This document shows, in pieces, positions 55,340-62,185 of a stretch of 64,000 bases of DNA (positions are counted from its first letter, which is position 1; each line of letters starts with the position of its first letter). Both the position numbers and the translations under genes were made by a program. Under the pieces are notes generated by a model. The model saw nothing but the letters and a program-made list of their open reading frames with translations, was not told the DNA's origin and did no database searches. Source of the DNA: Escherichia coli (lineage in GTDB: Bacteria > Pseudomonadota > Gammaproteobacteria > Enterobacterales > Enterobacteriaceae); the NCBI RefSeq assembly GCF_003334405.1, contig NZ_QOWM01000001.1; one strand, written 5' to 3'.

Positions 55340-58300
55340 TTATTCAAACAGGGCTTCAATATCGTTAATTAGCTCGCTGGCGGTGATGGCATCGAGTACG
55401 GAGAGCTGCGCTTCCTGTGTTGAATTACTCCCCCAGCCATAGCTTTCCGCTTTGCCTTCCCATAGCCACAGCTTGCTTAAGAGTTGCTCGGCACTCAGTT
55501 CGGCTGGCGACATGCCTACCGCAAAGCCTTCATCGATTTCCATGATTAACGACCAGCGGCCCAGAGGTTTGATCATCCAGCCGATCCAGCCTCCATCCTG
55601 TGGTTCGCCCTTTATCCAGCCTTTATTCGCCAGCCCCATTACCCGACCGCTCGGGCATTTTCTGCCTGCCCAGCGGGTCAGTTCGCTGGCATTGCGCTCG
55701 GTTTCTGTCAGGGCGTAACTGTTACGGTCGAGTTGGCGGAACGGCGGTAGCAGTTCGTAGTCGGCAAAAAGCTGCCCAAATGCGGCGGCATCCGTCGGTG
55801 ATATTTCCAGAACGTGAGGAATACCAACAGAGATATCGCCTTCCGGCAGGGTGAAAAGATCATCGTCAGCGGTGCTGTAGCTGTTATCTTCCGCTACCCG
55901 GAAACAGGCCAGTAGCTGGTTTTCGGCGCTATAAACGCCCCAAATCAGACGGCGGGTTAAGTGGCGAACTAGCGGATGCTCAACCAGGAAGAGCTGAAAG
56001 TTTTCCGGTGACCAGCGGCGACGCAGGCACATGGCGGATTCCAGCCTTGCTACCTGCTGGGCGGCGACGGTACGCGCATCTTTTTTCAGCAGTTTGTAGC
56101 GGTTAACAGCATCGTTCGCCTGTGATTCATCATCGCTTTTGTTTGGTTTGGGCAGGTCTTTCAGACGGCTGCCAGAAACATCACGCACAAACGGTTTTAA
56201 GGTTTCATCAAAGCTGACGGTGAACTGGCGTGAGCCGAAATCCAGCAGCAACGAACCGTTATCATCCAGACCAAGATCCGGTGCTAACCGATCTTCAAGC
56301 TCTGCCACCGTGAGTTCGCGGCTTTCGGCAATGTCGGCAATTTTTTCTTTTGCCCGCTCCTGTAATGCTTTGAATTTCAGTTTCTGGGCAATACCGTTAA
56401 GCTGCATCAGGGCGATATCACTACCGATAGCGGCGAGAATATCCAACCCAACGGTGGCGCGTTTATGCTGGGATTCACCAGGCCAGGCGCGTATTAATGG
56501 CGTCAGTTTGCGGGCGGTGTCATCGTTACCAAGAACGCCTAACGCAGTGAACGCCCAACTCTCTTTCGACGGTGCGCCCGCAGTCAGCCAGGCGGTAAAC
56601 AGATCCCAGGCAAATTCAGCCAGTGAGTCGGCGGTACAGGCATCTTTCACCTGCAATAATCCCGGATACAGGGCCTCTTCCTGAGGGAAGCGGAGCATTT
56701 CACCGAGGTGGAGGAGGGCGTTATCTGGCAGTACCTTGCTGCTATTTTTGAGTTTTGGGCGAGTCCATAATGGAGGTTGATAAAACAACGGTAAAGGGGG
56801 GATTTTCGCCGGGTATTTACCCACAGGACTGTTGTCGTTATTTTTATTTTGAGTTTCCCAGGGCGGCGAGACTAGTACCATTGGTAGAATTTCTGAGTTT
56901 GCAAAATCTTCATTGCGACTATTCAGCAATTGCTGACATTGTTGCAATAAATTTGCCGCTTGCGACGATAATCCGATGACTAATTTTTCGACCAATAAAG
57001 GATTTGCATTAAGTAATGAAACCAGCAACGTATGTTTGCGTTTATCATCTTTTTTTACCAATGCTTCGGCTAATGCCGCTATCGTGGCAGAAGGAAAATT
57101 TTCGGCACTTTTTATTAGTCGTTCATAACAGCGTTTATTAGTATCGGCGGCTTCGATGAGTGCCGTAATGGCCAACGGATGATTAATACATTTCAGTACG
57201 TCACCGCAATTATCTTCTTCAGCATAGGAAGCCAGGCGAGCCAGTGCCGCTATACCTTGTTCCCGTAATACCGTAGCTGACCAACTGGCACCATAGGTGT
57301 TAAATACATCAATGTATTGATAGTTCTCCAGTATTTCGAGCGTGAATGGATCTGTCGCTACCAGTTTCAACATTTCAAGTTGTGGAACATCTGCGACCTG
57401 GTGTAAACGATGTACGATCTCATGGGCCACTTCGGGTATTTCTGGCATTAAAATGGCAATTAACGGTTGGCGATAGAGTGATATATCTGGTAACGCAACG
57501 AGTAATTTTGCAATGCAATTTTGCCATACTTCTTCTTCTGCTAGTGATAAATGTTTACGCAGACGTAAACTAAATTTGTCGTTATTCCTTCTATAACTGT
57601 CCTTGCTGCTATCTGCATAATTAATAAAGAAAGTCAAATGTTCATCTTTATAGTCAAAATCGAAATCAATTTGCCACCAGAAGATGACAGTTTCAGTTGC
57701 GTATTCGATACCGAAGGTGCTTACAATTTCATCCAGCAACTCGGATGAGGTTTCATCATTCCAGCCCTGACAAAAACATATTTCCAGAAAAGTAAGTACC
57801 GCCATAGTACGCGCGGGTATCTCAGTCTTTTGGGCCTTAATTAAGCTGATTGCCTGGCTAATCGCATCAGCCCATTCATCAGAGCATGAGCTGTAATCGA
57901 AAGTCAGATTTTTATAATAATGATAAGTACGATTTGCCAATCGGGAAATTAAATTTTGTTTCTCGGGTTTGGTTGGTTTTTTTACTGGCTCTCCCGGCCA
58001 AAGGCGGTGGCTGAGGGCATGGCGGGCAATATTCGGGGGAAGAATAATGGGATCGTTGTCTGCCAGCCAGGGTAAACCATTAGTTGCTGCCTGGTGATTT
58101 ATTGAGGCTTTTTCCTCTGTGACTAGGACTTTCTTTGCTGAGGCATCATGTGAGTGAGCGTTAGCGTCTACTTGCTCCACATACCCCTTCTTCACCTTCT
58201 CCGCAATCAGCTTCAGTTCCGCTTTTTCTGCCGCCGCAGCATCAGCAAAGCTTTTTACCTGACTTTGCCCGTTAGTGCCGACTTTGCCCCAGTTGATATG

Positions 58301-61300: not shown

Positions 61301-62185
61301 CATAGCATTGGCAATATCCGGGCATTCGGGGAGCAGTAACGCCGCAAAAGGTTGCCGTGCTGGGGATAGCGTCGGAATGGCGGCGAGTACTTTATCTACA
61401 CAGCGTTGCCACTCATCTTCTGAAGCGAGTGAAAGATGATGACATAGACGTTGATGCCAACTCGGCAGCGATTCTGCTTTGTGATTAGGTGGAATGATGG
61501 TGGTTACTGCGCCTTTTACTGGTTTATATCTAAGTTGAAGAGCGAGAAGGGCAATTTCAACGGCACTTTCCAGACCACAGCGAATGACTAAGTCATCGAC
61601 CAGTTCATCTGCAGAGTAAGAGTTCCAGAAACTCCAGAGCAATGCTGCATCAGATTGTGCACTCCCTGTCTGTTGATTACCCTGAACTCGCATTTGTAAC
61701 TCAGCAAAAGCCTGCTGCCAGTTTTCTGGATAAGAACGGTAATTGTTGGCGGGATCATATGCCCTGGTGTTATTCGCGATGAGCTGCCATATTTGACCAT
61801 CTTTGTGCAGATAATTGATCTCTCTGGGGCGAGAGCGATGAGGAAAAGCAAATCGATTAATATCGTCAGTTAGCCGAATGACCGCATCATCAGCCAGCCA
61901 GGGGCGTTGGTTTTTACTCTCAGGGGAAGTTTCAACTTCAGGAGTGGCTTTGGTAATGGGGGGGATATGCACGTTTGCTGAAGCATTTTCCACATAGCCT
62001 TTTTTCGTTTTCTCTGCGATCAGCTTAAGCTCCGCTTTTGCCGCTGCCGCAGCATCCGCAAAACTTTTTATCTGGCTTTGCCCGTTAGTGCCGACTTTGC
62101 CCCAGTTGATATGCAGCTCGTTTCCCTGCTGCTCAACCGCCCAGAATTTATGTGATTTTTCGTCCTGATAGATAAAGTGTCTCAT
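58385..62185 (-). CDS. molR: MolR-like giant protein with WGR-like N-terminus, apparently intact
   Basis: 1266-aa uninterrupted ORF; N-terminal MRHFIYQDEKSHKFWAVEQQGNELHINWGKVGTNG...; RBS aggga upstream. Confidence 0.8.
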   Translation of the reverse strand: MRHFIYQDEKSHKFWAVEQQGNELHINWGKVGTNGQSQIKSFADAAAAAKAELKLIAEKTKKGYVENASANVHIPPITKATPEVETSPESKNQRPWLADDAVIRLTDDINRFAFPHRSRPREINYLHKDGQIWQLIANNTRAYDPANNYRSYPENWQQAFAELQMRVQGNQQTGSAQSDAALLWSFWNSYSADELVDDLVIRCGLESAVEIALLALQLRYKPVKGAVTTIIPPNHKAESLPSWHQRLCHHLSLASEDEWQRCVDKVLAAIPTLSPARQPFAALLLPECPDIANAMALRYADQNVPAMTWLSMMVSDDVALAIQEKYGFPPLYNDFRKYLATLLANNGMRGVSRILLKLPVDYPVKYTDLFTHIHANAEDLVKWLWKTNHPDAIQILILGVNGKKKHLEYLSKACQKHPAAAIAAYATLLAIHENNEWRKALVKLITATPELVCEVIPWVNAKAAGILSECRPLPVAEECEYATVDMLPELLVAPPWVINKKKNVIPVFDLPVLPIPAVTDITPGITELISHTDISRFSEIAQYQASQQTLFTDLPLIEKESWETSFIPFTPEQQILWQLGFNEWLHCENDLHEKKYIPQSAVDALLRFDFSALKAEFAKYHNNANKSWNLSALCYLPGQQAISFLNQIIIEERYSGEKEILAVFGSTAIPAFMTCLQRDHQRLWIFTLFIGASELALPMAQRLQKKIAYKDAVNWLANNPRHAAAGLLPLALGKPCQNREYARQALLLLVKLNQRETIEEIAQGYNQPDVLAALATLFDSDPLEEYPAKIAPLPGFYQFPLWRRPRLKSNNLPLPDDAMRHLGTMLSFPRDITSYAGLAIIKETFTRESLADFGWDLYTAWTEAGAPAKENWAFTSLGILGNDDTARKLTPLIRAWPGESQHKRAVYGLDVLASIGSDIALMLLNGIAQKIKFVALQEHASDRINMVAENRGLTMAELEDRLAPDLGLDSSGSLTLDFGPRQFTVGFDETLKPVVRDANGKVLKDLPKPNQSDEKTQATDAVNLFKQLKKDVRAIASQQIDRLEQAMCQRRRWTAEQFRLFLVEHPLVRHLTRRLLWGVYNDENALITCFRVAEDSTYSDAQDELFTLPAGNIGIPHVLEIPPESAAAFRQIYVDYELLPPFQQLERGSYHLADNERNVHELSRWDGRLCQAGRIVGLERRGWQRLEESGSVYAMRKSTPYGALELETEPFSLIYGETGYSDLLPVESVKITAPYDRYGKQSSPTFSVLDDITASELINDIESLFD

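Follow-up and report, generated by a model that had tools for sequence, protein, structure and literature searches.

Probable Domain-Limited Exchange between Tandem WGR-DUF4132 Paralogs and a Probable Deletion Origin for molR in Escherichia coli K-12

Gene Content of the metG-yehI Interval

The DNA analyzed here (the window) is a stretch of 64,000 nucleotides (nt) from the Escherichia coli assembly GCF_003334405.1, contig NZ_QOWM01000001.1. The last 13 kb of the window contain the metG-yeh region on the minus strand, in which two tandem paralogs, designated gene A and gene B, encode proteins with a WGR domain and a DUF4132 domain. The 5' ends of these two genes form a direct repeat inside sequences that are otherwise highly diverged. 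The pattern is very probably the product of recurrent short-tract gene conversion between A and B within the WGR-encoding island, together with a repeat-mediated deletion that yielded the hybrid gene called molR in E. coli K-12.

Gene A (58385-62185, minus strand) adjoins metG (62326-63957, minus strand) and encodes a protein of 1266 amino acids (aa), as defined by its open reading frame (ORF) and by the annotation of E. coli strain BR1220. Gene B (55340-58372, minus strand) encodes a protein of 1010 aa, which represents a short allele class. The third paralog, yehI (51698-55330, minus strand; 1210 aa), was identified by protein alignment and annotation. Genes A and B are separated by 12 nt (58373-58384), and genes B and yehI by 9 nt. 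The region is 100% identical to that of strain BR1220, in which all three genes are annotated as intact DUF4132 proteins. Two Pfam domains were detected in the product of gene B: WGR (PF05406) at residues 7-69 with an E-value of 1.3e-17, and DUF4132 (PF13569) at residues 734-919 with an E-value of 1.8e-51. The domains of gene A were assigned from those of gene B and from the alignment of the two proteins, whose first 66 residues are 89% identical. YehI does not contain the WGR module or the linker that follows it, and its alignment to A and B begins at the PWLAD motif.

The Shared 5' Module

A direct repeat of 198 nt with 88% identity was detected by the repeat finder at 58176-58373 and 61989-62186. 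The repeat corresponds to the first 66 codons of each gene, which form the WGR-encoding 5' module. The upstream copy is the module of gene A (61989-62185, minus strand), also delimited by the allele alignment, and the downstream copy is the module of gene B (58176-58372, minus strand), also delimited by the Pfam match. A sequence-only reading of the window had reported about 90% identity over roughly 180 nt at this position. The island is real, and the measured identity is slightly lower, with 161 of 183 positions (88%) matching between 58190-58372 and 62003-62185. The perfect match of about 50 nt in that reading is an exact run of 49 nt, located at 62076-62124 in gene A and at 58263-58311 in gene B (both minus strand). 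This run is the longest in the pair and contains the 47-mer that had been quoted, which is found exactly twice (58264 and 62077). In each of the strains examined, A and B share exact runs of 23-53 nt.

Outside of this island the genes are much more diverged, as the same reading had stated. The 30-nt blocks flanking the repeat are 20-37% identical, which is the chance level. Beyond the repeats, the nucleotide identity of A and B in the codon alignment is 37-78%, and the bodies of the two proteins share 28-31% amino acid identity. The divergence along the two genes is therefore clearly nonuniform. Apart from this pair, 30-mers are repeated exactly only in an unrelated tandem duplication, at 50.2-51.2 kb of the window.

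Sharply bounded high identity inside otherwise diverged paralogs, as found here, is the pattern anticipated for gene conversion. The limits of the tract match those of the domain, from the start codon to the GYVE motif, before the variable linker. This coincidence arises because the homology is bounded by the indel-rich linker after GYVE and by unrelated sequence upstream of each ATG.

Synonymous Divergence and Shared Polymorphism

Alleles were taken from six three-gene E. coli strains (the window strain included), six two-gene E. coli strains, and three other Escherichia species. The proportions of synonymous (pS) and nonsynonymous (pN) differences were used for the comparisons. For A versus B, the Nei-Gojobori pS is 0.14 over codons 1-40, where the nucleotide identity is 93%, and 0.38 over codons 21-60. 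Elsewhere in the two genes the pS is 0.6-0.95, and it is still 0.70 in the best-conserved stretch of protein, where the amino acid identity is 90%. The most conserved stretch of the C-terminal control gives an A-B pS of 0.77. The low synonymous divergence of the tract rules out protein-level constraint alone, which cannot explain the nucleotide identity.

In the WGR core (gene nt 16-165) the A-B pS is 0.38 (0.33 within the same genome), compared with 0.31 among A alleles and 0.29 among B alleles. The corresponding values for the 1.5-kb C-terminal control are 0.69 (saturated), 0.23, and 0.26. Fixed and shared differences were counted in 8 A alleles and 9 B alleles. No fixed A/B difference and 17 shared polymorphisms are found in the WGR core (nt 16-167), whereas a C-terminal control of 1.4 kb contains 210 fixed and 63 shared sites (Fisher p = 8e-11). 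When only the E. coli alleles are counted, the core has 0 fixed and 10 shared sites. The fixed paralog-specific differences are confined to the edges of the module, at nt 5-15 and from nt 168 onward. That these edges, approximately 15 and 30 nt long, stay specific to each paralog is as expected if every conversion tract has both of its ends within the homologous stretch.

A different explanation is that selection, acting on the protein or on the nucleotide/RNA sequence, holds the WGR stretch in place with no exchange between the copies. The WGR module does have the lowest nonsynonymous divergence in the genes (pN of 0.05-0.07, versus 0.25 in the C-terminal region), and the boundaries of the block coincide with those of the domain. 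However, it is the synonymous sites that are unexpectedly similar, and these same sites are polymorphic within each paralog, with a pS of about 0.3. The synonymous sites of the WGR module are not constrained, because they vary freely among the alleles of each paralog. The absence of fixed differences alongside 17 shared polymorphisms is likewise at odds with constraint. No Rfam family matches at 51-64 kb, so the identity is not explained by a conserved RNA element. An antisense ORF of 62 aa at 58154-58342 has no counterpart of at least 60 aa in the A copy.

The comparison with other genera, where conversion between the two genes is impossible, also argues against constraint as the cause. The amino acid identity between E. 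coli B and the Erwinia protein is 62-67% in the WGR module and 69-73% in the C-terminal 480 residues. For E. coli A and Erwinia these values are 62-69% and 61-62%, and for E. coli A and B they are 89% and 63%. The WGR module is therefore no better conserved between genera than the C-terminal region. In the tandem paralogs of Massilia (4-7 copies), the nucleotide identity is 65-80% in the WGR module and 75-88% in the DUF4132 region. The pattern in Escherichia is not a general property of the family, because the WGR module of Massilia is not above the DUF4132 region. Constraint without exchange is largely refuted by the synonymous polymorphism and is considered highly improbable.

A Second Island at the 3' Ends

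The last 22 codons of gene A (58385-58450, minus strand) and the last 22 codons of gene B (55340-55405, minus strand) were also paired by the repeat finder, and 57 of these 66 nt are identical. Across the alleles, this 3' island has a single fixed difference and 6 shared polymorphisms, compared with 24 and 33 fixed differences in the two 66-nt bins before it. The pS in the 3' island is 0.37 for A-B and 0.28 within each paralog. The last 66 nt are thus also exchanged between A and B, and the homogenization extends beyond the WGR module. The tail of gene A, the 12-nt spacer, and the WGR module of gene B form one contiguous conserved junction of approximately 275 nt. This junction aligns as a single block of 282 nt in Escherichia sp. 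MOD1-EC7003, where the upstream gene is a very different allele.

Mosaic Alleles in the WGR Module

The four-gamete test of Hudson and Kaplan gives a minimum (Rm) of at least 21 recombination events in the 198 nt of the module. Neighboring informative sites are more compatible with one another than permuted sites in a permutation test modeled on the pairwise homoplasy index (p = 0.0002-0.01). Individual tracts can be recognized in both directions. The A allele Q65_A contains a B-type tract at roughly nt 78-141, and the B allele NR301_B contains A-type states at nt 111-115. The 49-nt run of the window strain covers 21 consecutive sites that are polymorphic elsewhere (permutation p = 0.0008). 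In this run gene B of the window has the A haplotype, and the closest B alleles (O157_B and E1V33_B) differ from it at several sites, both of them carrying T78 and C99 and both differing also at position 87. This arrangement suggests that the run is a lineage-specific conversion patch, in which the transfer would have been from A to B.

The same module could instead have been replaced once, in the ancestor of Escherichia, and have diverged afterward, with the mosaics arising by allelic recombination between strains. The A-B divergence of the module is indeed substantial (12-18% at the nucleotide level, pS of 0.33-0.47) and is about equal in E. whittamii, Escherichia sp. E1V33, and E. coli. There is no clear clustering of A with B within genomes, and every species has fixed paralog-specific differences at the two ends of the module. 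A single event before the species split, however, would be expected to have left fixed differences in the core, and none are found in 152 nt that contain 17 shared polymorphisms. It is also difficult to reconcile with B-type tracts in A alleles and A-type tracts in B alleles, or with a 49-nt run in the window strain that is missing from its nearest B relatives (p = 0.0008). One old replacement is consequently regarded as quite unlikely.

Origin of molR in E. coli K-12

A count over 5426 complete E. coli genomes found the body of gene A in 1644. In 3663 of the 5426 genomes, K-12 and BL21 among them, metG, the intergenic region, a single WGR module, and a K-12-like body are contiguous. The remaining genomes, approximately 120, include other allele types and loci disrupted by insertion sequences (IS). 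The K-12 sequence is 95.8% identical to the window across metG, the intergenic region, and the WGR module of gene A (61989-62900), and 94.6% identical across yehI and the last 1.5 kb of gene B (51318-56814). K-12 molR is orthologous in its 3' part to the C-terminal 1.5 kb of gene B. The middle 2.1 kb of K-12 molR has no nucleotide match in the window. This part belongs to another allele class of gene B, which is found as a full-length gene (1264 aa) in three-gene strains such as SK1A.

The length of the locus is 11,560 nt in SK1A, which has three genes and the full-length B, and 7,751 nt in K-12, a difference of 3809-3810 nt. The WGR-to-WGR spacing is 3,810 nt, so the deleted length is one repeat period. 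All six of the two-gene strains have the A-type upstream region and the A-type first 15 nt (ATGAGACACTTTATC). The same six strains have the B-type end of the module at nt 168-198 (T168, G171, GGT177-179, and following sites) and then the B body. The most parsimonious reading of these sequences is that K-12 molR (yehH) is a hybrid of the 5' end of A with B (A-5'::B), formed by a crossover inside the WGR repeat. The hybrid gene is an intact ORF of 1264 aa in BL21, and it is secondarily frameshifted, with an internal stop, in K-12. The promoter of the hybrid gene is contained in the metG-A intergenic region (62186-62325, minus strand), as located by alignment with K-12, where BglJ-RcsB activates the molR promoter in the metG-molR intergenic region (PMC3950696).

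The polarity of this change could be the reverse, with the two-gene state ancestral, the three-gene state produced by an insertion or duplication, and K-12 molR the original gene rather than a deletion product. The two-gene state is the majority state in E. coli (3663/5426), Erwinia has a single WGR-DUF4132 gene, and in its C-terminal region B lies slightly nearer to the gene of Erwinia than to gene A. Against this, genes A, B, and yehI are found in the same order in E. whittamii, Escherichia sp. E1V33, and Escherichia sp. MOD1-EC7003. The divergence of these three species from the window is similar in A, B, yehI, and the flanking sequences, and their A genes are approximately 85-87% identical to gene A of the window. 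Gene A is as diverged as the flanking genes in these species, pointing to vertical descent. The bodies of A and B are saturated at synonymous sites, and thus no recent duplication made the two genes. The length that the hybrid lacks relative to the three-gene locus is also exactly one repeat period. An ancestral two-gene state is therefore given very little credence, and the three-gene state is, most parsimoniously, the ancestral one. The scan with two exact peptide patterns returned no loci from E. albertii, E. fergusonii, or Salmonella, a result that does not establish absence from these taxa.

Proposed Mechanism and Its Assessment

In the proposed mechanism, A and B are ancient tandem paralogs that are saturated at synonymous sites but retain two islands of homology, the 198-bp WGR module and the 66-bp C-terminal tail. 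Purifying selection on both of the short protein segments that they encode would keep enough identity for homologous recombination, presumably RecA-dependent, in which noncrossover outcomes would leave patches and crossovers would cause deletion. Recurrent short-tract conversion, within and between strains, would merge the variation of the A and B copies into a common pool of polymorphism. A crossover between the repeats, within gene nt 16-167, would remove the body of A and the start of B, approximately 3.8 kb. The same crossover would fuse the promoter and first codons of A to the body of B, giving the molR gene of K-12, BL21, and about two-thirds of E. coli.

The proposals of the sequence-only reading can be judged in this light. 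Recombination between the paralogs is borne out by the contrast in pS (0.14 over codons 1-40, compared with 0.6-0.95) and by the counts of fixed and shared sites (0 and 17, compared with 210 and 63). The exchange had been described as recent. Recent exchange did occur, but old exchange did as well, and the process recurs and is not confined to one recent event. The restriction of homogenization to the WGR module applies to the 5' island and fails at the 3' end, where the last 66 nt are exchanged too. The strong constraint offered as an alternative exists as purifying selection on the protein (pN of approximately 0.05) and is not the cause of the nucleotide identity, given an allelic pS of approximately 0.3. 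The suggestion that the repeats are a substrate for deletion is upheld by the comparison of strains, in which the K-12-type molR appears as an A-5'::B hybrid that lacks exactly one repeat period. The gene called molR in K-12 is itself a deletion product.

Several points weigh against recurrent conversion and deletion as the explanation. The sample consists of 17 A/B alleles and 6 hybrid alleles. The same-genome A-B pS in the core (0.33) is not clearly lower than the different-genome value (0.38), with A-A at 0.31 and B-B at 0.29. Strict concerted evolution within genomes is therefore not what is observed, and a large part of the exchange may be old or may have taken place between strains. At a pS of about 0.3, some of the shared polymorphisms and four-gamete incompatibilities will have arisen by recurrent mutation, and the control region too has 63 shared sites. 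The WGR tree places A with B, tightly, and the C-terminal tree places B with Erwinia, with a quartet bootstrap of only 67% for each; this incongruence is moderately supported, and it is supportive rather than decisive. The crossover can be placed no more finely than gene nt 16-167 because there is no fixed A/B site in that interval. The hybrid allele of strain 18KM2445 has a different body class and therefore reflects either a second deletion or a later replacement of the allele; the deletion may have occurred once or several times.

Allele Classes and Gene Decay

The body of gene B (56815-58175 in the window) is found in at least three allele classes in E. coli, with proteins of 1010, 1253, and 1264 aa. 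The amino acid identity between the classes is 42-63%, and each class is also found in another Escherichia species. This distribution suggests a polymorphism older than the species splits or a transfer between species. The nucleotide identity between the classes is 93-95% over the first 150 nt, 50-65% over the next 2 kb or so, and 90-97% over the last 1.5 kb. Whichever two alleles are compared, the similarity ends at the WGR boundary.

Genes A, B, and the hybrid are often pseudogenes, as is observed for both A and B in the O157:H7 strain F7508 and for molR in K-12. Insertions of IS1, IS5, and IS1203 truncate gene A in other strains. Strains with a truncated gene A were considered as candidates for additional repeat-mediated rearrangements and were rejected when the truncations turned out to be IS1 and IS5 insertions or deletions. 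In strains EC2202095 and AR_0372, a deletion fuses a remnant of yehI to a remnant of yehM, and yehK and yehL are lost. The decayed loci in the comparison set are L001 (4241-8036), L002 (4239-11046), L045, L046, and L007 (1487-5179).

Neighboring Features and Distribution of the Family

The last 120 codons of metG (62326-62688) in 12 E. coli strains have a mean synonymous diversity of 0.149, with a maximum of 0.30 and no amino acid changes. This diversity is high for a housekeeping gene and may be due to hitch-hiking beside a hypervariable locus or to the recombination-rich surroundings of rfb. The region around rfb is rich in recombination. The yehL-yehK interval (50211-51430) contains a tandem duplication of approximately 610 bp, in which the 300-nt cores are 88% identical and the 73-nt terminator-like ends are 95% identical. 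Each copy of the duplication matches the Rfam family of the OrzO-P antitoxin RNA, with scores of 99.9 and 88.8 bits against a gathering score of 60. The duplication is the known zorO-orzO / zorP-orzP type I toxin-antitoxin pair.

The DUF4132 neighborhoods were compared in loci L019-L043, from Erwinia, Massilia, Xanthomonadaceae, Rhodoferax, Myxococcota, Anaerolineales, Holophagales, Verrucomicrobium, and Acinetobacter. The DUF4132 genes, with or without a WGR module, are almost always followed by genes for homologs of YehL (AAA+), YehM (DUF5682), YehP (VWA), and YehQ (SWIM). This set of genes is a conserved module that occurs in distant phyla as well. The number of DUF4132 paralogs ranges from one in Erwinia to approximately seven in Massilia aquatica. 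A short contig binned as Collinsella sp. in a metagenome-assembled genome (L017, 2847 nt) encodes a protein 91% identical to that of gene A, and a contig assigned to Mycobacterium talmoniae (L028, 7145 nt) encodes DUF4132 and YehL proteins of a proteobacterial type. Both contigs are probably the result of contamination or mis-binning.

Residues 1-90 of A and B match the NCBIfam model for the Leptospira LIC_11051 family fibronectin-binding protein with 61 bits, compared with a cutoff of 1000. Membership in this family was rejected, since the match covers the WGR stretch only and reflects a shared WGR domain. The Leptospira LIC_11051 family evidently begins with a WGR domain. The match is no indication of fibronectin binding by A or B. 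When searched against PADLOC-DB 2.0, the products of A, B, and yehI matched no family at E <= 0.01, and YehK, YehL, YehM, YehP, and YehQ matched none at E <= 0.001.

A functional interpretation may be offered as a doubtful but conceivable extension of these observations. The WGR module and the C-terminal tail could serve as conserved handles that allow recombination to reshuffle the hypervariable bodies between paralogs and strains, an arrangement that would resemble a diversifying sensor array of an uncharacterized conflict or immunity system. The DUF4132 proteins, in 1 to approximately 7 copies, could then be the front end of a widely conserved module formed by YehL (a MoxR-like AAA+ protein), YehM, YehP, and YehQ.

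Significance and Comparison with Known Systems

The origin of K-12 molR can now be explained. The gene is an in-frame product of the loss of 3.8 kb between two WGR repeats and is the ortholog of neither gene in three-gene strains such as O157:H7. Because molR is a hybrid, ortholog tables and pan-genome clusters are wrong at this locus if they place molR, A, and B in one family or score them as simply present or absent. The two genes also offer a clear natural case of domain-limited conversion, in which the rest of the same genes, being saturated, serves as an internal control. By this analysis, the metG-yehI interval ranks among the chromosomal loci of E. coli that are richest in alleles. Both processes are textbook ones, and the interest would be greater if the variable bodies prove to have a recognition function. 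In the literature searched, nothing was found on the function of DUF4132, the K-12 chimera, or conversion of the WGR module, and the only relevant paper concerned the molR promoter. The locus combines gene conversion between paralogs with deletion between repeats and is apparently an undescribed instance of these two known processes.

The tufA and tufB genes of Salmonella and E. coli and the rRNA operons undergo concerted evolution by RecA-dependent gene conversion. Genes A and B resemble these systems in that paralogs on the same chromosome exchange sequence and have synonymous sites more alike than the age of the duplication predicts. They differ in that exchange is limited to the short terminal islands of 198 and 66 nt, outside which the 3.5-kb bodies are saturated. 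In addition, A and B are in tandem and co-oriented, and their homogenization is incomplete, with a shared pool of polymorphism rather than near-identical copies.

For deletions between short direct repeats, the minimal efficient processing segment in E. coli is reportedly about 23-27 bp, as Shen and Huang are said to have found in 1986. The exact A-B runs, 23-53 nt long, reach or exceed this minimum. As in such deletions, the loss at the molR locus is one repeat period and a hybrid repeat is left at the junction. By contrast, the molR deletion is known here from natural variation, and its product is an in-frame, functional-looking fusion that is now the majority allele of the species.

In the hsdS specificity genes of type I restriction systems and in pilE/pilS, conserved segments that flank hypervariable ones act as anchors for recombination. 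The A/B locus is similar in that its conserved ends (the WGR module, the C-terminal 1.5 kb, and the tail) flank a body with at least three allele classes. It differs from hsdS and pilE/pilS in showing no evidence of programmed or site-specific switching and in having no silent cassettes.

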